Position numbers and translations under genes: made by a program. A DNA stretch of 32,000 bases from Promethearchaeia archaeon (GTDB lineage Archaea > Asgardarchaeota > Lokiarchaeia > Sigyniarchaeales > SOKP01), in contig JAWOFX010000130.1 of the NCBI GenBank assembly GCA_046497275.1, positions 18,281-50,280 on the forward strand. The letters are read 5' to 3'. The notes under the pieces were generated by a model. That model searched no databases. It saw only the letters and a list, made by a program, of their open reading frames with translations, and was not told where the DNA came from. The number at the start of each line of letters is the position of its first letter. Position 1 is the first letter of the stretch. Of this stretch, positions 14,053 through 24,186 are shown in pieces.

Positions 14053-14928
14053 ATGGAAAATTTTAACATAGATTCCCAAACAAACGTGTTAGGTCTTATT
14101 GGTCATCCAGTACAACATAGTATGAGTCCGATAATGCATAATGCAGTAATTCAAAAATTAAACTTAAAATATATTTATTTAGCTTTTGATGTTGACCCAA
14201 AAAATTTGAAAAAGGCGATGTCAGGAATTAGAGCTTTAAATATTAAAGGGATTAATGTTACAATTCCATATAAACAGGAAATTATGAAATTTGTAGATGA
14301 AATAGATCCGTTAGCGAAAAAGATTGGTGCAATAAACACGATTAAAAATGTGGATGGATATTTAATAGCGAGAAATACAGATACTGCTGGAGCTAAGAAA
14401 AGTCTTAAAGATGCGAAGTGCAAATTTCAAGGAAAAAATGTTTTAGTATTAGGCGCTGGTGGTGCATCGAGAGCAATATGTTTTGCATTAGCAGAGGAAG
14501 CTAATAAAATAATTATTTCTAATCGTACAGAAGATAAAGCTATATCTTTGGCTAAAGAAATCAAAAATAAAGTGAATACAGATGCCGAAGGATATTCAAA
14601 CCAAAAAAATATCTTAGAAAAATTTATCGAAAATGTTGATATTTTAATTAACACAACACCTTTGGGAATGTATCCAAAAACAAATCAAATACCCCTCCCA
14701 GAACACCTATTAATAGAAGATCTTTTTGTCTTTGATGTGATCTACAATCCTTTGAAAACAAAATTACTTAAAGTTGCTGAAAAAAAAGGATGTAATATTT
14801 TAGGAGGTTTGGATATGTTAGTAAACCAAGGCGCATTAGCATTCGAATGGTGGACAGGAAAAGAGGCTGATATAAATTTAATGAAAACAAAAATAACTAA
14901 ATATTTGGAGAGTAAAAATGTTAGGTAA
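14053..14928 (+). CDS. aroE: Shikimate dehydrogenase
   Basis: 'GHPVQHSMSP.MHN', 'NVTIPYK', 'GAINTI', 'NTD', 'LGAGGASRA', 'NTTPLGM', 'GLDMLVNQG'. Confidence 0.95.
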   Translation: MENFNIDSQTNVLGLIGHPVQHSMSPIMHNAVIQKLNLKYIYLAFDVDPKNLKKAMSGIRALNIKGINVTIPYKQEIMKFVDEIDPLAKKIGAINTIKNVDGYLIARNTDTAGAKKSLKDAKCKFQGKNVLVLGAGGASRAICFALAEEANKIIISNRTEDKAISLAKEIKNKVNTDAEGYSNQKNILEKFIENVDILINTTPLGMYPKTNQIPLPEHLLIEDLFVFDVIYNPLKTKLLKVAEKKGCNILGGLDMLVNQGALAFEWWTGKEADINLMKTKITKYLESKNVR

Positions 14929-15823
14929 ATCAATAACAATTATAGGTGGATCTGGCGGTATTGGTCAGGTTTTTGCCACTTTTTTCAAAACACACGGTTT
15001 TAACGTAACTATTTTTGCTCGAAATAAAGAAAAACTTGAAGAGGTTGCAAATACTTTAGATGTGAATTTTGATCTAGATTTAGAGCGAAGTATAAAAGGT
15101 GCTGATATCGTTATGGTCTCCATTCCCATCCGTTCTACTCCACAGTTGATTAGGCAAGTTGGCCCTTTATTAAAAAGAGATGCGCTGATTTTTGATGTAA
15201 CTTCTTTAAAAAAGGAGACATATAAAGCTTTAAACGAAACTAGAAAAAACTATGAAGTTAATTCTGTTTCTCTACATCCTATGTTTGGACCAGGTATAAA
15301 AAGTATGGAAAACTATAATATGATCCTTTTAAATGTGGGAGGAACAGACAATTATAACAAGAAAAAAGATGCTTTAAAGAAAATGTTTATTAAGGAAGGT
15401 TTATATTTAACTGAGATTAATGATCCAGAAGAACATGATAAAATGATGGCCATAGTTCTTGGAACACCCCACATGTTTAACATTCTCTTTATGAAATTAT
15501 TAAAAACAATGGATATTCCTCTCTCAAAGCTTATGGACTTCACGGGAACAACCTTTTTGTTACAAAAGGTATTCGCTGAGAGTATAATTCAGAGAGAGGT
15601 AGAAATGTTTGGGGAAATCCAGATGGATAATCCCCAATTCCACACTCTACTTGAAGAATTTAAGAAAGTCCTAAAAGAGTACTCCTCAATCATTGAAAAT
15701 AAAAACCTTAAAAAGTTCAAAAAAATCTTCTCTGATGGAATTGAATATTCAATAAATGATCCCCATTTTGAGCAATCCTATCGCTTCTTTTATGAATTTA
15801 TGAAAATTTTAAAAAAAACCTGA
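14918..15823 (+). CDS. tyrA: Prephenate dehydrogenase (monofunctional TyrA)
   Basis: Rossmann 'IIGGSGGIG', 'VMVSIPI', 'DVTSLK', 'SLHPMFGP', 'EHDKMMA'; overlaps the aroE end by 11 nt. Confidence 0.88.
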   Translation: MLGKSITIIGGSGGIGQVFATFFKTHGFNVTIFARNKEKLEEVANTLDVNFDLDLERSIKGADIVMVSIPIRSTPQLIRQVGPLLKRDALIFDVTSLKKETYKALNETRKNYEVNSVSLHPMFGPGIKSMENYNMILLNVGGTDNYNKKKDALKKMFIKEGLYLTEINDPEEHDKMMAIVLGTPHMFNILFMKLLKTMDIPLSKLMDFTGTTFLLQKVFAESIIQREVEMFGEIQMDNPQFHTLLEEFKKVLKEYSSIIENKNLKKFKKIFSDGIEYSINDPHFEQSYRFFYEFMKILKKT

Positions 15824-15858: not shown

Positions 15859-16236
15859 TTAGGACAAATCAAAACCGCAAAAAGCGCAATAATTAGCTTC
15901 CCCTCTCTCATCCAATTTTGCTCCACAGCTTGGACAGTATTTCCCTATTTGAACAACAACTTCTGAATTATTCTCAAATTCTGTAGATTTATAATAATTA
16001 TTTGGTTTCTCTGGTGAATTATACGCTTCAATTACTGGTTTATAGGGGTTGTATTCTTCAGAGGGTTGGCAAATAGAATTACAGTAAATGCATCGGTTTT
16101 CAGGTTTATTAAAATATATAATTAAATATATGAATACTCCAAATCCGGAAGTGAAAATTGCTAATATGACTAAAAGAAACCAATTGATCTCTTCACGTTT
16201 CGTTGGAACATCCTTACAGCACTTTTTACAATACAT
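15859..16236 (-). CDS. LITAF-like CxxC-hydrophobic-CxxC membrane protein with C-terminal Zn ribbon, paralog 1
   Basis: CKKC-42 aa including 'WFLLVILAIFTSGFGVFIYLIIYF'-CIYC, then 'CPSCG...CAFCG'. ATG at 16236 preferred because the GTG at 16251 lies inside an SD-like AGGTGA. Confidence 0.8.
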   Translation of the reverse strand: MYCKKCCKDVPTKREEINWFLLVILAIFTSGFGVFIYLIIYFNKPENRCIYCNSICQPSEEYNPYKPVIEAYNSPEKPNNYYKSTEFENNSEVVVQIGKYCPSCGAKLDERGEANYCAFCGFDLS

Positions 16237-16304
16237 TTTTATTTTTCTCACCTTATTAAATTATTTTTTTATAATGATATCTAATTTACAATGATGTTTA
16301 GTAT

Positions 16305-16336
16305 TATTAAAAAGATCTTGAGACCAATTCTTAATT
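16305..16336 (-). promoter_or_regulatory. Conserved promoter block (TATA-like plus upstream element) of paralog 1
   Basis: Minus-strand AATTAA-g-AATTGGTCT-N7-TTTTTAATA, repeated with the same spacing at 16865-16896. Confidence 0.6.
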
Positions 16337-16406
16337 TAGAAAATAAATATATATGAAATAATTATTTCTAAGCAAGAATACTAAAATATGAAGGAATAGA
16401 AATATA

Positions 16407-16814
16407 TCATAATTCCATTCCACAATCTGGACAAAAATCTAAGGAATCCTTAATTTCTGAACCACAAAAAGGACAATATATTGCCTTAATGCCTACAATT
16501 TTATCAATATTCTCTTCAAGATTATTATTAGTTATCTTCTCACTTAACCTATAAGGATTTTTTCCTTTTTCTATAGGCTCTTGAAATATGTCTCTATTAT
16601 CATTCCCTGCCTTAGATGATGAGGATTGGAAAGCCTTCACAACTGAACCACAATGTACGCATCGATTCTCTTCTTTAGAATACCAAATAGCCAAATAGAT
16701 AATCAAACCTATACCAGCTGTAAAGATGGTTAAAATAATAGCTAAACAGATATCCAAATCCTCCCGTTTAAGAAGGGTGTTTTGTCCGCATTTTTCACAA
16801 TAACCAATTGTCAT
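16407..16814 (-). CDS. LITAF-like CxxC-hydrophobic-CxxC membrane protein with C-terminal Zn ribbon, paralog 2
   Basis: CEKC-42 aa including 'ICLAIILTIFTAGIGLIIYLAIWY'-CVHC, then 'CPFCG...CPDCG'. Confidence 0.82.
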   Translation of the reverse strand: MTIGYCEKCGQNTLLKREDLDICLAIILTIFTAGIGLIIYLAIWYSKEENRCVHCGSVVKAFQSSSSKAGNDNRDIFQEPIEKGKNPYRLSEKITNNNLEENIDKIVGIKAIYCPFCGSEIKDSLDFCPDCGMEL

Positions 16815-16864
16815 ACTTTTAACCTCATAATATTACTCTCTTATTTAAAAAATTAGAACGATTT

Positions 16865-16896
16865 TATTAAAAATATATTTAGACCAATTTTTAATT
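16865..16896 (-). promoter_or_regulatory. Conserved promoter block (TATA-like plus upstream element) of paralog 2
   Basis: Minus-strand AATTAA-a-AATTGGTCT-N7-TTTTTAATA, 51 nt upstream of the ATG at 16814. Confidence 0.6.
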
Positions 16897-17035
16897 CGAC
16901 TAGATTTTATAAAGAATCTTGAAGATTTCTCATCTATTTAAAGAATTAAATAAATATTGACATAAAATTTAGGTAATATCTTACTTTCTCAGATATGTTA
17001 TAATCTAAATTATTAATTTTTTTCTTTTAACAAAT

Positions 17036-18298
17036 ATGAAAATGAACAATCAGAAAAGCAATTCTTCTGAAAAAATAATAGATCCAACCATTAGTACATT
17101 TAGACATTATTTAGTATTTTGGGGGGGGCAACTCTTTTCACTTCTTGGCTCCTCAATAGTCCAATTCGTAGTTATTTGGTGGATTACTGATATTACAGGC
17201 AGTGCTGTGCTCTTATCGATTACTGCTTTTTTTGCGTTTATACCAATTATTATTATCGGACCAGTTGCTGGAGTATATATTGATAGATGGAATCGAAAGA
17301 TGATAATTGCCGCGACGGATGCAATTCAAGCTTTATTAACGTTTTTTCTTATTATTGTGTTCCTATTTGGTTTTGTAGAAATTTGGATAATAATATTTTT
17401 AAATAGTTTGCGTGGGATCTGTCAAGCAATTCATTTCCCCGCAGTTAATGCAATTATTCCTATTATGGTGCCAAAGAAATATTTAAGTAGATTAAACGGT
17501 ATTAATTATTTATTTCAAGGGTTAATTAATTCTATGGGTCCTGTGTTTGGCGCTTTTTTCTTTGAACTCTGGGGTATAGAGGCAGCGTTATCAATTGATA
17601 TAATTACTTTTGGGATCGCATTATTTTTATTGCTGAGCATAAAAATTCCTAAAATTACAAAAAAAACAGTCAAATCATCATTTAAAATGGATTTTAAAAT
17701 GGGTATTAGAGTTCTTAAAATGGTACCTGGATTGCTTATTTTGCTAATCTTAATCTCCTCTGTTAATTTTTTAAGTGTTCCTTTTAATACATTGATGCCA
17801 TTATTCATAAAAAGGATTCATAATGGCAATTCCTATGATTTGGCTTATATTATGGCTTTAATACAAGTTGGTCTTGTTTTAGGATCAATCAGAGCTTCGA
17901 TAAAAAAAGTGTGGAGAAGGAAAGTTCATACCATTTTTGCGGGTATATTAATTGCAGTGATAGGATACTTCATGGCAACATTAGCACCTATTGGACTATT
18001 CTTTTTAATTGGTATAGGTGGTGCTATCCGAGCTTCTATGATTCCAATAATTAATACTAATTTCTTAACTATTATACAAACCAATGTGACCCAAGAAGCT
18101 CAAGGACGCGTTATGTCGATTGTACTCACTATTGCTTCCGCAATTTCTCCACTTGGAATGATTCTCTCGGGGCCATTATCAGAAATTTTTGGAATCGTAA
18201 CCCTATATTTTATTTGTGCTACACTTATCATAGTAAGTGTTATTATAGTTTACATTTCCACAAATGTCAGAAAAGTCAGATATGATTCAGAATTTTGA
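17036..18298 (+). CDS. MFS transporter, MefA/DHA3-like efflux family
   Basis: About 12 hydrophobic segments; 'FWGGQLFSLLGSSIVQF', MFS motif A 'GVYIDRWNRKMII', 'QGRVMS'. Confidence 0.88.
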   Translation: MKMNNQKSNSSEKIIDPTISTFRHYLVFWGGQLFSLLGSSIVQFVVIWWITDITGSAVLLSITAFFAFIPIIIIGPVAGVYIDRWNRKMIIAATDAIQALLTFFLIIVFLFGFVEIWIIIFLNSLRGICQAIHFPAVNAIIPIMVPKKYLSRLNGINYLFQGLINSMGPVFGAFFFELWGIEAALSIDIITFGIALFLLLSIKIPKITKKTVKSSFKMDFKMGIRVLKMVPGLLILLILISSVNFLSVPFNTLMPLFIKRIHNGNSYDLAYIMALIQVGLVLGSIRASIKKVWRRKVHTIFAGILIAVIGYFMATLAPIGLFFLIGIGGAIRASMIPIINTNFLTIIQTNVTQEAQGRVMSIVLTIASAISPLGMILSGPLSEIFGIVTLYFICATLIIVSVIIVYISTNVRKVRYDSEF

Positions 18299-18328
18299 AT
18301 ATTTGCCATTTAATGATATTTTTATACC

Positions 18329-18730
18329 TTATTTAATTTCGCTGCCACAATTGGGGCAGAATATTATTCCAAGATCAACATTTTCTCCGCAAAATGGACA
18401 ATACTTACTTTCACCACCAGTTATTATATCTGGTTCTTTTTTTGATTTTCTATTATTTGAGGATGTGATTCTATAAGGATTTTTAACCGGAGAAATAATT
18501 TTTTGTTTCTCTTCATGGCGTTTTATTTCCTTGTATTTAGCTTCCATTGGTCGGATAATGGAGCCACAATGAGCGCATCGATTTTCGTCTTTATTATACC
18601 AAATAGCCAAGTAGATAATTAATCCGATTCCACCTGTAAAAATTGCCAAGATTATAGCTAAACAAACATCGAACTCTTCTCGTTTAACATTAACAACTTG
18701 ATCACAATGAGGACAGTAACCAGAAGCCAT
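18329..18730 (-). CDS. LITAF-like CxxC-hydrophobic-CxxC membrane protein with C-terminal Zn ribbon, paralog 3
   Basis: CPHC-42 aa including 'VCLAIILAIFTGGIGLIIYLAIWY'-CAHC, then 'CPFCG...CPNCG'; closest to paralog 2. Confidence 0.82.
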   Translation of the reverse strand: MASGYCPHCDQVVNVKREEFDVCLAIILAIFTGGIGLIIYLAIWYNKDENRCAHCGSIIRPMEAKYKEIKRHEEKQKIISPVKNPYRITSSNNRKSKKEPDIITGGESKYCPFCGENVDLGIIFCPNCGSEIK

Positions 18731-18741
18731 TTTTCTTAATA

Positions 18742-18764
18742 ATTATACTATTTTATAGTATAAT
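18742..18764. promoter_or_regulatory. Perfect 9-bp inverted repeat, candidate operator of paralog 3
   Basis: ATTATACTA-tttta-TAGTATAAT, 12-34 nt upstream of the ATG at 18730. Confidence 0.4.
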
Positions 18765-18834
18765 AAAATTTAATATTTAGAATTAAAAAAGCAAAAAAAT
18801 TTTATAATTTTTTGGATAATATGCTGTGCTTGAT

Positions 18835-19272
18835 TTAAGGATTTTCAAGTTCTTTAGTCCCTTGTTCCCATCCGCAATAGGGGCAGATCTCTGCTTTTTT
18901 ATCGATATCTTGACCACAATTTTCACATTTTTTATATTCTCTCTTATCCATAGAATGTGTTTGCTGATTTTTCTCCTCTTTTTTACTTTTTTCTTCTTCT
19001 AATTTTTCCATGAGATTAATAACTGGAACTTTTTTAGGGTATTCTCCCGGTGAGCGATAAAAGTCCACTTTTGCACTACATCGAGGGCAGTAAATCTTTT
19101 TTTGAATAAAAAAGCGATAAATAAAGAATGCAACAAGAGCAATACCGAAGGTTGCTAAAGCGGCGATTATTAATATTTGATAATGAAAGGAAGTGAGTGA
19201 TTTTCTTTTAGGTTTTTTCACAGGTTTTCCACATTGAGTACAAAATGCATATTTTTTCCCCATATTCTTCAT
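18835..19272 (-). CDS. LITAF-like CxxC-hydrophobic-CxxC membrane protein with C-terminal Zn ribbon, divergent paralog 4
   Basis: CTQC-47 aa including 'ILIIAALATFGIALVAFFIY'-CPRC, then 'CENCG...CPYCG'. Start may be Met at 19263. Confidence 0.78.
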   Translation of the reverse strand: MKNMGKKYAFCTQCGKPVKKPKRKSLTSFHYQILIIAALATFGIALVAFFIYRFFIQKKIYCPRCSAKVDFYRSPGEYPKKVPVINLMEKLEEEKSKKEEKNQQTHSMDKREYKKCENCGQDIDKKAEICPYCGWEQGTKELENP

Positions 19273-19464: not shown

Positions 19465-20190
19465 ATGGGGATAAAAATAGTAAAAATCAAATCAAAAGAG
19501 AATATTTTAAAACATATCGAAATTAAACGAATTAAGCACATAAACTACGCAGAAGGTATTTTTAAAATTTTAAATGAGCGATTGTTAACCTATGAGGAAT
19601 ATAGAAAATTAAATGATAAAGAAAAAGAAAAATTTACTAATGAAGGATTTGTTATTGGGCAACATTCTCTGCAAACCTTACAGGAATGGATTGAAAATGA
19701 CAAAAATTACATAATCACTGCAGAATTAAGATCTGGCGAAGATAAAGAAATTATAGGATTTACTTTAATTTTAGGAACGGAAGATATTCAAGATTTGGTT
19801 AGAAAATATGCTAAGCAAATCATATTTGAGAAAGAAGCTTATAAAAAGATAATCTCTAAAAACGATTTCTTATATTTGATTCAAATATGTGTAGCAAAAA
19901 ATTTTTCTAATTTAAAGATTGGGACCAAAATTATAGATGAAAGTTTCAAATTGATCAATAAAGCGATTGTATCATTCGTCATAAAATCGCCTATTCAAAA
20001 TAAGGCATCTCTTTATTTTCATTTAAAAAATGGATTTAGATATCTAGGAGATTATTTAGGAGATTATGGCGATTTTAAGAATTATAGTTCTACTGGACTT
20101 ATTTATATTCAAAAAAATCCTCCAATAATGAATAGCGATATATTAAACTTGATCGAATATATTAACAAAGAAAAAAGAGAGAGTGAATAA
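19465..20190 (+). CDS. GNAT-family acetyltransferase-like protein
   Basis: 'IIGFTLI', motif A-like 'YLIQICVAKNFSNLKIGTKII', motif B 'NKASLYFHLKNGF'. Confidence 0.7.
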   Translation: MGIKIVKIKSKENILKHIEIKRIKHINYAEGIFKILNERLLTYEEYRKLNDKEKEKFTNEGFVIGQHSLQTLQEWIENDKNYIITAELRSGEDKEIIGFTLILGTEDIQDLVRKYAKQIIFEKEAYKKIISKNDFLYLIQICVAKNFSNLKIGTKIIDESFKLINKAIVSFVIKSPIQNKASLYFHLKNGFRYLGDYLGDYGDFKNYSSTGLIYIQKNPPIMNSDILNLIEYINKEKRESE

Positions 20191-20211: not shown

Positions 20212-23200
20212 TTATAAAACTTGCTTTTTCTTCTGTCTTTGATATTTTATCCATGCAAATATACCGAATATTAGAAAGAGTGCTAAAAACCCGTATATTA
20301 GCCCATATATAAGAATCTCTGCCAGAGGGACCACATCATCTAAGATGGTAAATGATGTTCCTAAAAGGTCAATATTAAAAATTTTGGCATATGTTAAAAT
20401 TAAAAGTACAAAACTAGCGATAGTTCCCCCAGTACTGAAAAAGATTATTTTTGGTTCGAGAAATTCTAAAAATTTATCCATAAATGAGAGCCCTCCCCCA
20501 CCAACGTGAATTTTCAATGGACCAAATCTAGGTTTTAGAAACTTCCTCTTAAAATTGATAAAAATATTCATTGCTTCGGGGCTATTTTCTAAATCATGTA
20601 ATGAATACCCCTTTTCTAACGATTCAGCTCCGAAAATTTGATTTTCATCACGCTCTCTGTCTTTTTGGATTCTACTTTGTTTTTGACTAAAATTAGGATT
20701 AATTACATCAATAACTTCTTCTTTTAACATCTTTATTTCTTTACGGAATTTCAATTGTTCTTTCTTGAGAACAGAAATTTGTTCTAATATTTCAGAACCT
20801 TTAAAATCTGGCATTAAATTGGATTCAAATTCTATTCTAATATCAGTAATATCCACGATCGCAATCGGTTCAAGTCTATACCCCCCATCAATTTTAAACA
20901 TAGCGATATCACTCCAATTACCTTCCTCATCGGGTATAAAATTATTGAATTGTACATCAGCAATATCTCCTCTATCAGACTTCATCTGTACTACTATAGA
21001 TTTTATTAGAGGTATAAACAATTTATTTACTCCTTTAAGTATCAATTTAAACACTAATGCAGTTTCTGTTCTATCTTCAATTTGGAGAGTATTTATATTT
21101 GGTCCCAATTCTTTCCACTCAAACCCCTCCAATGGAGAAGGTCCTTGACCAGAAAATTCGAGATCAAAATACCATTCTTCTGAAATTAGATTTGATAGAT
21201 TTTCACCAATAGATCTGAGCACTCCTAACCAGTAAAGACTTTCTGACTCACTTATACCTATGAGAAACTCATTTAAAGCTATTTTTAAATTCTCCTCATT
21301 GTCTTGACCAAACTCTCCATCATTAAATAACTGAAATATTTTTGATAACCACGGAGCATGACCTGAATGCCCAAGCAATCTCCAGCTTTCAAGTTTTTGT
21401 TTAAGATACACCAAAATTACGTCTTTTCTCTTAATAGAATATTCTGTATCTAGAGGCTCTAAACCATAAATTATACGGATTATATCAGGATTACACATAT
21501 CATCCGGAAGAAGATCATAAGTACACCCCGTTTGAATCTGAGAAACCAGAGTATCTTGCTCAATTGTTAGCTTACCGGCTTTATCTATTTCTCCTCTATT
21601 AATAAATTCTGCAATATCCCATATCAAAATATCATTATCATAAGAAGCGGATATTAGCTTATCTTTATAAATTTCTAAATCTTTTACTCCTTCAGAATGT
21701 CCTTCTAGCGTTTTTAAACAAGTTCCCTTTTCTAAATCCCAAATTTTTATTGTTTTATCAAGTGAACCAGAGAATACTATACCATTCTTTATTTGAACCG
21801 TTAAAACTTGATCTTTGTGTCCAGTGAAGATTCTCTTAGTTTTTCCGGACTTAATATTAAATGCCCGAATAGTTTTATCAGCAGAAGCTGAAACAACTAT
21901 TCCATCTTCATAATCAATATGAAATATCTCATCATTATGCCCTTTAAGGACCTTTAAACACTTACCAGACTTTTCCCATACTCTTATTGTTGCATCTGAC
22001 CCCGCTGTTAATATTCTTTCCTTTGAAGCTATAACCGCACTATAAACTGCATAAGTATGACCTTTTAAAATTTTAATTATATCTCCCGTATTAATATCCC
22101 AGATTATAGCAGTATTATCCCATGAAGTTGTTACAGCAGTTCCATTTTTTAAGGCGACGCGATAAGTTGATCCTTCATGTTTTTCTAATTTACGTAAGGT
22201 TTCACCTGTATTTAGGTCTATTACATAATAATCTCCTTTATCAGATGAGGTGATTGCTATATTATCCTCACTTGCTAAACCCCAAATCCATCCTGAATAT
22301 CCAAGATCAATTTCCTTAATAAATTCAAGACTCTCTAGATCCCATATTTTTAAAAGGCTTTCCTTTCCGGTGGAAATTAGTTTATTATTTGCAATAGAGA
22401 CCCCTAAGACTTCGTCTTGGTGACCTTTAAGGGTTTTTATATCATGTATCGAATTATCATCCCAAATACGAATAGTTGTATCAGCTGAGGCAGAAATCAA
22501 AAAATTGTCTTCTTTCCAAATGCTTAATACCGCATCTGAGTGTCCTTCTAACTTCTTGATGCAATTTCCCGTATTAATATCCCATAAACGAATGGATTTA
22601 TCCTTTGAACACGAATACAAAATATTTCCTTCCAAAAAAAGATCTAATACGGTTCTTTTATGTCCATGGAATTCTCTAATCTTTTTCTTTCGTTTGAAAT
22701 CCCAAACGAATATAGTATTTGCTTGATCACCAGATACTATTAAATCTCCCTGACTATCCAAGCAATCAATCGCATCCCCATGTCCTTCATATGTATGGCA
22801 ACATGAGCATGTATTCATTTCCCAAACTTTAACACTGTGATCCCAAGAAGCGGAGATTATTTTATCTTTGTTAATTGCTACTTTAGATATTTTTCGATCA
22901 TGGCATTCAATGGTTTCTATACATATCCCTTGTTTCCAGTTCCAGACTTTAATTGTTTGATCTTCAGAACATGAAACAAGAGTATCCCCATATAATTTTA
23001 TATCTAAAACATTACCTTTGTGTCCCTCAAGAATTTTAAAGCAATTCCCACTTATTTTGTCCCATATTCTTATTGTGTTATCAAAACTTCCAGATGCTAT
23101 AATTTCGTCATCCACATCAACCGATGAGACAGTATTCGTATGGCCTTTCAAAATCTTTTTACATTCACCAGAAATTAGGTCCCAAATTCTTATTGTACAA

Positions 23201-23325
23201 TCTCTAGAGCCAGAAATTATTGTTTTCTTATAGATTTTAACATCTTCTACTGGTTCTAGATGTCCTTCTAATTTATTCTTATACAATATATTGTGTATTT
23301 CATATATTTTTTTACTAACAACCAT
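20212..23325 (-). CDS. WD40-repeat protein (14 repeats) with C-terminal unknown domains, coiled coil and two TM helices
   Basis: 14 ~40-aa GH...SxSxDxTIxxWD repeats in about the first 575 aa; heptad segment 'ILEQISVLKKEQLKFRKEIKMLKEEV'; two hydrophobic helices and a basic tail at the C-terminus. Confidence 0.9.
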   Translation of the reverse strand: MVVSKKIYEIHNILYKNKLEGHLEPVEDVKIYKKTIISGSRDCTIRIWDLISGECKKILKGHTNTVSSVDVDDEIIASGSFDNTIRIWDKISGNCFKILEGHKGNVLDIKLYGDTLVSCSEDQTIKVWNWKQGICIETIECHDRKISKVAINKDKIISASWDHSVKVWEMNTCSCCHTYEGHGDAIDCLDSQGDLIVSGDQANTIFVWDFKRKKKIREFHGHKRTVLDLFLEGNILYSCSKDKSIRLWDINTGNCIKKLEGHSDAVLSIWKEDNFLISASADTTIRIWDDNSIHDIKTLKGHQDEVLGVSIANNKLISTGKESLLKIWDLESLEFIKEIDLGYSGWIWGLASEDNIAITSSDKGDYYVIDLNTGETLRKLEKHEGSTYRVALKNGTAVTTSWDNTAIIWDINTGDIIKILKGHTYAVYSAVIASKERILTAGSDATIRVWEKSGKCLKVLKGHNDEIFHIDYEDGIVVSASADKTIRAFNIKSGKTKRIFTGHKDQVLTVQIKNGIVFSGSLDKTIKIWDLEKGTCLKTLEGHSEGVKDLEIYKDKLISASYDNDILIWDIAEFINRGEIDKAGKLTIEQDTLVSQIQTGCTYDLLPDDMCNPDIIRIIYGLEPLDTEYSIKRKDVILVYLKQKLESWRLLGHSGHAPWLSKIFQLFNDGEFGQDNEENLKIALNEFLIGISESESLYWLGVLRSIGENLSNLISEEWYFDLEFSGQGPSPLEGFEWKELGPNINTLQIEDRTETALVFKLILKGVNKLFIPLIKSIVVQMKSDRGDIADVQFNNFIPDEEGNWSDIAMFKIDGGYRLEPIAIVDITDIRIEFESNLMPDFKGSEILEQISVLKKEQLKFRKEIKMLKEEVIDVINPNFSQKQSRIQKDRERDENQIFGAESLEKGYSLHDLENSPEAMNIFINFKRKFLKPRFGPLKIHVGGGGLSFMDKFLEFLEPKIIFFSTGGTIASFVLLILTYAKIFNIDLLGTSFTILDDVVPLAEILIYGLIYGFLALFLIFGIFAWIKYQRQKKKQVL

Positions 23326-23601: not shown

Positions 23602-24186
23602 GTGTTCTGTGCATTAGAAGGTATTGATGGATGTGGAACTAGCACTCATACTAGACTGCTAGGCGGATTTCTAAAACATAAAGGATATGATGTATTTTTA
23701 ACTCAAGAGCCTACTAAAAGTGAGATTGGAAATCTGGTTAGATACTTTCTAAAAAAAGAAGACTCACATCCTAGCATAGATGCTCTCTTATTTGCAGCTG
23801 ACAGAGCCTCTCATTACCATGAGGAGATCAAAAAGAAATTAAAGAAAAATTTTATTGTAATCTCAGATCGCTATATTGAATCTTCCATAGTCTATCAATC
23901 TGTACAATCAAAAGAAATCTCTCAAGAATGGGTAGAGTCACTCAACAAATTTGTTGGAAAACCTGATCTTACAATAATTTTAGATATAGATCCAAAAATC
24001 TCATTGTCAAGAAAGACGGGAGAAGAATTGGAGAAATTTGAAAATATTAACTTTTTAAAGAAAGTGAGAGAAGTGTATTTACAAAGAGCAAAGAAACAAA
24101 ATTATTATATTGTTAATTCAAATGATATAATAGAAATTGTTCAAGATCGTATTCAGAAGATAATCATTAAGCATTTAAACAGATAA
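23602..24186 (+). CDS. tmk: Thymidylate kinase (dTMP kinase)
   Basis: 'EGIDGCGTST', 'TQEPT', 'LLFAADR', 'ISDRY..SSIVYQ', 'PDLTIILD', 'EKFE'. GTG start. Confidence 0.9.
   Translation: MFCALEGIDGCGTSTHTRLLGGFLKHKGYDVFLTQEPTKSEIGNLVRYFLKKEDSHPSIDALLFAADRASHYHEEIKKKLKKNFIVISDRYIESSIVYQSVQSKEISQEWVESLNKFVGKPDLTIILDIDPKISLSRKTGEELEKFENINFLKKVREVYLQRAKKQNYYIVNSNDIIEIVQDRIQKIIIKHLNR

Follow-up and report, generated by a model that had tools for sequence, protein, structure and literature searches.

An array of small, putatively membrane-anchored LITAF-like zinc proteins at a conserved locus in one family of Lokiarchaeia

Introduction

The LITAF domain of the eukaryotic proteins LITAF/SIMPLE and CDIP1 (Pfam family PF10601, zf-LITAF-like) is built from a CxxC knuckle, β strands, a hydrophobic stretch of about 24 amino acids (aa) and a second CxxC knuckle. 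To our knowledge, this domain has been studied almost only in eukaryotes, in the settings of Charcot-Marie-Tooth 1C, endosomal sorting and cell death, and its membrane hairpin has been difficult to study structurally. Monotopic membrane insertion and zinc binding by the two Cys pairs have been shown experimentally for the eukaryotic domain (PMC5142333). Here we describe four paralogous genes, called A to D, whose products share this succession of elements. The genes lie in a 32,000-nucleotide stretch of DNA (the window) from contig JAWOFX010000130.1 of a Promethearchaeia archaeon of the class Lokiarchaeia, and all positions refer to that window. In our view the products are best seen as Lokiarchaeial relatives of the LITAF-like zinc-hairpin membrane anchor, a variant with a second, tethered zinc ribbon that is encoded by an ordered paralog array at a fixed housekeeping locus. 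We found no paper that records the array, its fixed locus or its narrow taxon range.

Four paralogs with two zinc modules

The window contains four paralogous open reading frames (ORFs) of 130, 135, 133 and 145 aa, all on the minus strand, and the co-orientation noted in a preliminary description of this DNA is borne out. Each belongs to one of three orthogroups defined by position in the array, and we refer to the first-position group as the D type and to the others as the A/B/C types.

15859..16251, minus strand: paralog A, 130 aa when read from a GTG; LITAF-like N-terminal domain, polar linker and C-terminal zinc ribbon; last-position orthogroup, next to tyrA
16407..16814, minus strand: paralog B, 135 aa; middle orthogroup; identified from the ORF and its motifs
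16629-16814, minus strand: N-terminal domain of B, residues 1-62
16410-16481, minus strand: zinc ribbon of B, residues 112-135, separated from the N-terminal domain by a disordered linker (residues 64-109)
18329..18730, minus strand: paralog C, 133 aa; middle orthogroup
18835..19272, minus strand: paralog D, 145 aa; first-position orthogroup, on the tmk side; knuckle spacing 47, E/K-rich linker, ribbon

Counted by script, 42, 42, 42 and 47 residues separate the first from the second CxxC in A, B, C and D, respectively, in exact agreement with the earlier count. In the same order, the first knuckles read CKKC, CEKC, CPHC and CTQC and the second knuckles CIYC, CVHC, CAHC and CPRC. Each protein has one uncharged run (24, 25, 24 and 20 aa), and the hydrophobic stretch with a central T-x-G-x-G/A that had been reported is present in all four, with run centres of T-S-G-F-G (A), T-A-G-I-G (B), T-G-G-I-G (C) and T-F-G-I-A (D).

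The second zinc ribbon that had been placed behind a linker likewise holds, both in the four paralogs, each of which ends in a CxxC-x10-12-CxxC arrangement, and in 151 of 152 array proteins collected from related genomes, with the ribbon spacing of 10-12 kept in 151 of the 152. Against the families Zn_ribbon_3 (PF13248), Zn_Ribbon_1 (PF13240) and DZR (PF12773), which share a CxxCG-x8-10-CxxCG module with the window ribbons, B, C and D score 35.4, 36.7 and 34.9 bits, above curated cut-offs (the values for B and C being those of Zn_ribbon_3), and the ribbon of A scores 24.6 bits, below the cut-off. These generic zinc-ribbon families carry no functional information; the window ribbon is set apart from them by its disordered tether to a predicted membrane hairpin. 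That linker is 32-70 aa long, Q/S/N-rich in the A/B/C types and E/K-rich in the D type. No NCBIfam family is assigned to any of the four paralogs.

Several features separate these proteins from LITAF and CDIP1. The LITAF-like domain is N-terminal in the Lokiarchaeial proteins and C-terminal in LITAF; the Pro-rich arm, whose PPxY and P(S/T)AP motifs recruit NEDD4-type ligases and TSG101, is missing; and a second zinc ribbon has been added after a disordered linker. Within the domain, the knuckle spacing is 45-47 in the D type and 42 in the A/B/C types, compared with 46 in nematode LITAF. The His of the eukaryotic HxCPxC motif, two residues ahead of the second knuckle, is unconserved in the archaeal proteins (A/B/C types have R-C-V-H-C), and the hairpin turn is formed by small residues, T-x-G-x-G, in place of the eukaryotic Pro/Phe/Cys-rich segment.

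A sequence search with paralog B returned 79 clusters at E ≤ 0.001, with 39-100% identity and nearly all full-length; the named matches are metagenome-assembled genomes (MAGs) of Lokiarchaeota/Promethearchaeota. In an alignment of 70 homologues, T32, G34, the Cys residues of the second knuckle and those of the ribbon are invariant, and the first-knuckle Cys residues (one entry is truncated) and eleven positions of the hairpin are kept in at least 90%. A knuckle spacing of 42 is found in 68 of 69 homologues. The linker is unconserved.

A short word, NPY[K/R/Q], recurs in the otherwise divergent linkers of A, B and C (for example at residues 86-89 of B) and in those of the related loci L015 and L017. 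It is present in 12 of the 152 array proteins, for which shuffles lead one to expect 0.6, but these are mostly close kin of the window genome and so are not independent. We rejected the word as a family feature on these grounds.

Likeness of the N-terminal domain to LITAF

The Pfam model PF10601 has 70 positions and a gathering cut-off of 23.8 bits. In hmmscan, the paralogs match most of its length, with 15.0 bits for A (profile positions 4-64), 23.5 bits for B (E 6.2e-5; 7-67), 21.6 bits for C and 20.6 bits for D (6-69). When neighbouring in-frame stretches are added, D reaches 23.9 bits. The same genome encodes two further relatives elsewhere. One is a stand-alone domain of 73 aa; the other, of 155 aa, combines a Lys-rich linker with a ribbon. 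These extra copies exceed the cut-off with 28.6 and 26.9 bits, and D-type orthologues reach up to 31.9 bits. In the search of this model that the preliminary description had proposed as a check, the paralogs themselves thus give near-full-profile matches of 15.0-23.5 bits that stop short of the threshold, and their orthologues and extra copies pass at 26.9-31.9 bits.

The signal extends through the family and past it. PF10601 is matched at E < 0.01 by 40 of 70 family members. A profile of the N-terminal domain, run against 1.84 billion representative sequences, returned 629 clusters at E ≤ 0.001, and of 61 more distant profile matches, 44 match PF10601 at E < 0.01 (best E 1.4e-9). The model itself is fairly specific: none of 125 other Asgard genomes has a full-length match, and in 14 control genomes nothing exceeds the cut-off, so the architecture seldom matches PF10601 by chance.

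A direct comparison with eukaryotic sequences became available through one nematode LITAF protein, which a D-type/stand-alone profile matched at 25 bits and which led to a set of nine LITAF proteins, all from nematodes. Aligned with hhalign, the Lokiarchaeial profiles match these nine domains with a probability of 96% over 59-63 columns that run across both knuckles. For a control, the knuckles were held fixed and columns were permuted only inside each segment (50 shuffles). Real scores of 50.0 and 49.4 stand 3.8-4.6 standard deviations above the shuffled scores of 25.5 ± 6.5 (maximum 39.3) and 25.6 ± 5.2, and a reversed LITAF profile scores 12.8.

These data bear on whether the likeness reflects common descent or an independently evolved zinc-clamped hydrophobic hairpin that would work as LITAF does. 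Convergence would suit a family confined, as shown below, to one GTDB family plus three of ten sister-family genomes, whose A/B/C types fall below the Pfam cut-off and have a knuckle spacing of 42 against 46 in the nematode set; architecture-preserving shuffles still score 25.5 ± 6.5, with probabilities of up to 94%. It accounts less well for the excess of the real hhalign score over the shuffles, for D-type and stand-alone relatives that these genomes also encode and that pass the curated cut-off over the full length at up to 31.9 bits, and for the scarcity of PF10601 matches in the other Asgard and control genomes. We consider independent origin rather unlikely.

Another CxxC-hydrophobic-CxxC unit, the C-terminal region of BRI3 (PF10164), is matched weakly by the N-terminal domain (profile positions 57-105 of 106; E 3.3e-4 with the domain alone), at 21.6 bits against a cut-off of 25.9. 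BRI3 itself comes from animals and has further membrane segments.

Some relatives already carry a suitable name. Proteins called 'LITAF-like zinc ribbon domain-containing protein' at NCBI (P0248 and P0271 in our set), and ESM Atlas clusters of the same name, are D-type or stand-alone Lokiarchaeial relatives of the same architecture, and paralog D belongs with them. Members of the A/B/C orthogroups (spacing 40-43) are mostly labelled 'zinc-ribbon domain-containing protein' or hypothetical. The suggestion that the family is undescribed accordingly stands for the literature, in which we found no relevant paper on LITAF together with Asgard, Lokiarchaeota, archaea, prokaryotes or phages, and fails for the database names.

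Predicted fold and membrane placement

AlphaFold2 was run on the 70-sequence alignment (residues in paralog B numbering), and a separate model of the domain alone was also built. In the full-length model, the N-terminal domain has predicted local distance difference test (pLDDT) values of 86-95 and comprises β strands at residues 3-6 and 11-16, a helix at 22-31, a break at T32-G34, a second helix at 35-46 and short strands past residue 50. Residues 64-109 have values below 50 and the ribbon about 75. The domain-only model shows the same secondary-structure elements. Its template modelling (TM) scores are 0.71-0.72 to the Promethearchaeota clusters of the ESM Atlas that are automatically named 'LITAF-like zinc ribbon domain-containing protein', 0.54/0.48 over 60 residues to an arthropod LITAF cluster, and roughly 0.5-0.6 to clusters of small bacterial and phage proteins. 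A check by AlphaFold and Foldseek, as had been suggested for this array, therefore returned both a predicted hairpin between β knuckles and the arthropod LITAF match. With these comparisons, the profile matches and the 96% hhalign probability, the earlier assignment of the N-terminal domain as LITAF-like is supported by three kinds of evidence. A Foldseek search of the Protein Data Bank (PDB) with the full-length model returned nothing at E ≤ 0.001.

We propose that the two CxxC β-knuckles in the first 60 or so residues would close one zinc site at the base of a 24-aa helix-kink-helix hairpin, whose helices (residues 22-31 and 35-46) would turn at the invariant T-x-G. A half-membrane hairpin is proposed because two helices of 10-12 residues are each too short to span the bilayer; it would dip into the cytoplasmic leaflet with both ends cytoplasmic, as in eukaryotic LITAF. 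The four knuckle Cys residues of the N-terminal domain would bind one zinc, and the predicted hairpin is consistent with monotopic insertion that leaves both flanks in the cytoplasm. The disordered linker would tether the C-terminal ribbon, which is likely to be a module for binding a partner. On this model, the proteins may be membrane-tethered adaptors or scaffolds, a role that is our best guess, and the hairpin might also exert a wedge or curvature effect.

An alternative topology has the 24-aa segment crossing the membrane once, which would leave the first CxxC inside and put everything from the second CxxC through the linker to the ribbon outside. An uncharged run of 24-25 residues would suffice for a single transmembrane helix, and the net charge of the flanks (-0.1 on the N-terminal side, +1.3 on the C-terminal side) discriminates weakly. 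However, all four Cys residues of the domain are strictly or nearly strictly conserved at a fixed spacing, which fits one shared site, and the invariant T-x-G falls in the middle of the segment, where AlphaFold2 breaks the helix and packs both knuckles into one confident domain. Moreover, Cys4 zinc ribbons are typically cytoplasmic. We regard a bitopic arrangement as improbable.

We also considered reading a function for the ribbon from look-alikes in the PDB (NZF, RanBP2-type and ArnA) and rejected this route; only the 25-aa ribbon aligned, and weakly, to generic zinc ribbons.

As a whole, the observations are best explained by a Lokiarchaeial family of small membrane-anchored zinc proteins that combine a LITAF-like hairpin with a tethered ribbon and form a core, lineage-specific array, a reading to which we assign a probability of roughly 0.6. 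Several points weigh against it. None of A to D alone reaches the PF10601 gathering score in hmmscan, near-full-profile as the matches are. About half of the hhalign signal is due to architecture alone and the rest is position-specific, because shuffles give 25.5 against a real score of 50.0. The TM score to true eukaryotic LITAF is only 0.48-0.54, obtained between predicted models of a short domain, and our PDB search did not find a solved LITAF-domain structure for comparison. Finally, contigs from RNA libraries (see below) fit expression of the array without proving transcription.

A fixed locus in one family of Lokiarchaeia

The array lies in a block that is flanked on one side by tyrA and aroE and on the other by tmk, with three further genes in the window between these anchors.

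14053-14928: aroE, next to tyrA on the A side
14918..15823, plus strand: tyrA (prephenate dehydrogenase), synteny anchor on the A side; counterparts in related loci carry PF02153/PF20463
17036..18298, plus strand: gene for a major facilitator superfamily (MFS) transporter (PF07690, 103 bits), between B and C and outside the family
19465-20190, plus strand: weakly GNAT-like gene, between D and tmk
20212-23325, minus strand: WD40 gene for a 1037-aa membrane protein, between D and tmk
23602..24186, plus strand: tmk (thymidylate kinase), synteny anchor on the D side; counterparts carry PF02223

In 57 of 60 species-level genomes, one to four array genes are flanked by a divergent tmk on one side and by a convergent tyrA and/or aroE on the other. 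A Lokiarchaeial MAG from Baja California has four contiguous genes (145, 132, 135 and 136 aa) between tmk and tyrA-aroE, and two other genomes have arrays of three and two genes at the same site. The survey of copy number and synteny that had been called for thus gives one to four copies at a fixed position. One small correction applies to the window's own array: the four paralogs are present, but they are not contiguous, since the MFS gene separates B from C. Furthermore, tmk directly adjoins the array in related species, and in the window the GNAT and WD40 genes intervene between D and tmk. None of these three genes has a counterpart in the arrays of the 60 related species (for the MFS gene, by tblastn at E < 1e-10), and therefore they are likely to be lineage-specific local insertions into a conserved tmk-array-tyrA block. 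For the same reason we rejected the idea of a 'membrane-stress island' that would join the array to the GNAT and WD40 genes.

A maximum-likelihood tree of the array proteins, with support values given as pairs, reproduces the gene order. One clade of 31 rows (support 100/98) comprises D-type proteins, D among them, all of which are encoded at rank 1 next to tmk and have a knuckle spacing of 45-47. A second clade of 55 rows (support 100/99) holds the last-position genes and includes A, and the remaining groups are middle-position genes. Three old orthogroups therefore follow one another in a constant order from tmk to tyrA/aroE: D type, middle type and last type. Paralogs B and C share a clade of five rows (support 99/82) with three genes of related loci, those at ranks 2 and 3 in L015 and the one at rank 2 in L017. 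Because the other members of this small clade are middle genes from the two closest relatives, B and C are, as judged from the tree, recent, lineage-specific duplicates of each other. At the two loci of the extra copies in the window genome, the neighbours encode a SAM (S-adenosylmethionine) synthetase, hexapeptide transferases, a PAN-type AAA ATPase and a MiaB-like radical-SAM enzyme.

The family is a lineage-specific core feature of one GTDB family of Lokiarchaeia and is not Asgard-wide. Among 151 genomes of the phylum, the N-terminal-domain profile matches 25 of 25 genomes of the window's own family and neither of two from the sister family; elsewhere it gives three short partial matches in 123 genomes of other families. 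PF10601 behaves similarly in this sample: full-length and above-cut-off matches are confined to the own family, the sister family has none, and the other Asgard families yield weak half-profile matches only. At the level of the class, a D-type/stand-alone profile matches 102 of 102 genomes of the own family, three of ten of the sister family and none of eight from other families. Relatives named in published work are also Lokiarchaeota, namely Baja_Loki3, bin108 and bin132 (PMC6737245, PMC10833476).

Several MAGs deposited as Odin-, Hod- or Hermodarchaeota (L018, L033, L037, L046, L055, L056 and L061) carry a syntenic array of the Lokiarchaeial type, and their array proteins nest among Lokiarchaeial sequences in the tree. 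We suspect that these names, which are submitter labels, may not match current classification.

A separate protein of 73 aa (L006:1340-1561, minus strand; contig C135 of genome G000) has a weak full-length match to PF10601 of 16.9 bits and is without a hydrophobic segment. It is a split zinc ribbon of a soluble kind, and its knuckles are arranged in the same way.

ESCRT and eukaryotic-signature proteins

The preliminary description went on to propose that the array may be a eukaryotic-signature module for membrane remodelling, tied to the endosomal sorting complex required for transport (ESCRT). Such proteins would be ESCRT- or ubiquitin-linked adaptors of an endosome type, inherited along the line that joins Asgard archaea to eukaryotes. 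A LITAF-like domain in an Asgard host is what invites this view, but the remaining evidence points elsewhere. No full-length family match was found in the 26 other Asgard families sampled (125 genomes), and the range comprises one GTDB family and a few sister genomes. A PPxY motif is present in none, and P[ST]AP in one, of the 152 array proteins; the window proteins also lack an N-terminal extension, whereas nematode LITAF proteins have PPPSY or PPPPY. The neighbours are housekeeping genes only: in 57 of 60 species they are tmk, tyrA and aroE, and the two extra copies lie beside the genes for the SAM synthetase, the PAN ATPase and the MiaB-like enzyme. NZF fingers bind ubiquitin through T-F residues after the first knuckle, and the window ribbon, as read from its sequence, has no T-F there. 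We found no link of the array to ESCRT or to another system; the proposal is not supported by these data, and we judge it very improbable.

Relatives on viral and other non-Lokiarchaeal contigs

The N-terminal-domain profile also matches, at library-wide E < 1e-7, CxxC-hairpin-CxxC proteins on metagenomic contigs from outside the Lokiarchaeia (for example P0191, P0213 and P0217). P0191 passes PF10601 with 25.6 bits. P0213 (L081:5001-5234) is a 77-aa stand-alone relative on a 54-kb prophage-like contig, where its gene sits between an HTH (helix-turn-helix) repressor/ImmA-like M78 peptidase pair and a phage integrase, in a lysogeny module. Temperate phages often keep exclusion or moron genes at such sites. 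From the prophage-like setting of P0213 and the score of P0191, the LITAF-like hairpin domain, as defined by these matches, also exists outside Asgard archaea. These three proteins, along with PHROGs 2546, 3845 and 2242, resemble the window proteins in length and knuckle spacing but have a hairpin motif of their own (N-H-I-L-H-L...G-x-W) and prophage lysogeny or nuclease neighbours.

Such findings raise the question of whether the archaeal array has a virus-derived or virus-directed function, such as superinfection exclusion or that of a membrane-acting moron, that became fixed in the lineage. Besides the position of P0213 between the ImmA-like peptidase and the integrase, look-alike clusters in the ESM Atlas are largely Uroviricota, and three PHROG families with no assigned function match the N-terminal domain weakly. 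On the other side, the array is universal in its family, is fixed between housekeeping genes and lies outside variable islands; a PADLOC scan gave nothing meaningful, and tblastn of the N-terminal domain and of one non-Lokiarchaeal relative found no match in 50,697 phage records. We hold a viral role to be highly unlikely. DUF7501 (PF24333), which is named in an ESM Atlas cluster label, has no above-cut-off match in the window genome.

Implications

Thin protrusions are typical of Lokiarchaeial cells. A speculative extension, which we rate as quite unlikely, is that the proteins are true LITAF homologues forming a core, expanded and position-fixed family, that their hairpins shape or mark the cytoplasmic leaflet, for example in such protrusions, that the ribbon recruits partners, and that the narrow range records gene transfer, in either direction, with early eukaryotes or their viruses.

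The archaeal proteins could serve as a simpler system for studying how a zinc-clamped hairpin is placed in a membrane, because they are small, have an architecture of their own and are found in every sampled genome of one Lokiarchaeial family. They also provide a defined example on which to ask whether a membrane domain regarded as 'eukaryotic' came to Asgard archaea through descent or through transfer. Its narrow distribution speaks against listing the family with Asgard-wide eukaryotic signature proteins.

Start codons, transcripts and a putative promoter

The GTG start listed for paralog A sits within a GGTGA word that resembles a Shine-Dalgarno sequence (16236-16253, minus strand). An ATG at 16236 would give a 125-aa protein with the M-Y-C N-terminus of its relatives, and for these two reasons it is the likelier start. 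Paralog B has a GAGGT seven nucleotides upstream of its ATG.

Metatranscriptome libraries from a salt lake (four runs, two studies) contain contigs that align at 99-100% identity to parts of A, B, C and D, and the array is probably expressed. The contigs over paralog B cover 16430-16837. Upstream of B lies a candidate promoter.

16862..16896, minus strand: putative promoter of B, a TATA-like box, TTTTTAATAA, preceded by AATTGGTCT

The same words recur upstream of A at about 16305-16336 (minus strand), where AATTGGTCT is followed after 6-7 nucleotides by TTTTTAATAA. Two of the RNA-library contigs over B end at 16835 and 16837, roughly 22 nucleotides upstream of the ATG of B and roughly 30 nucleotides downstream of its TTTTTAATAA box, and one of them continues into Illumina adapter sequence. 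These ends, near 16836, are a weak hint of the transcription start of B.

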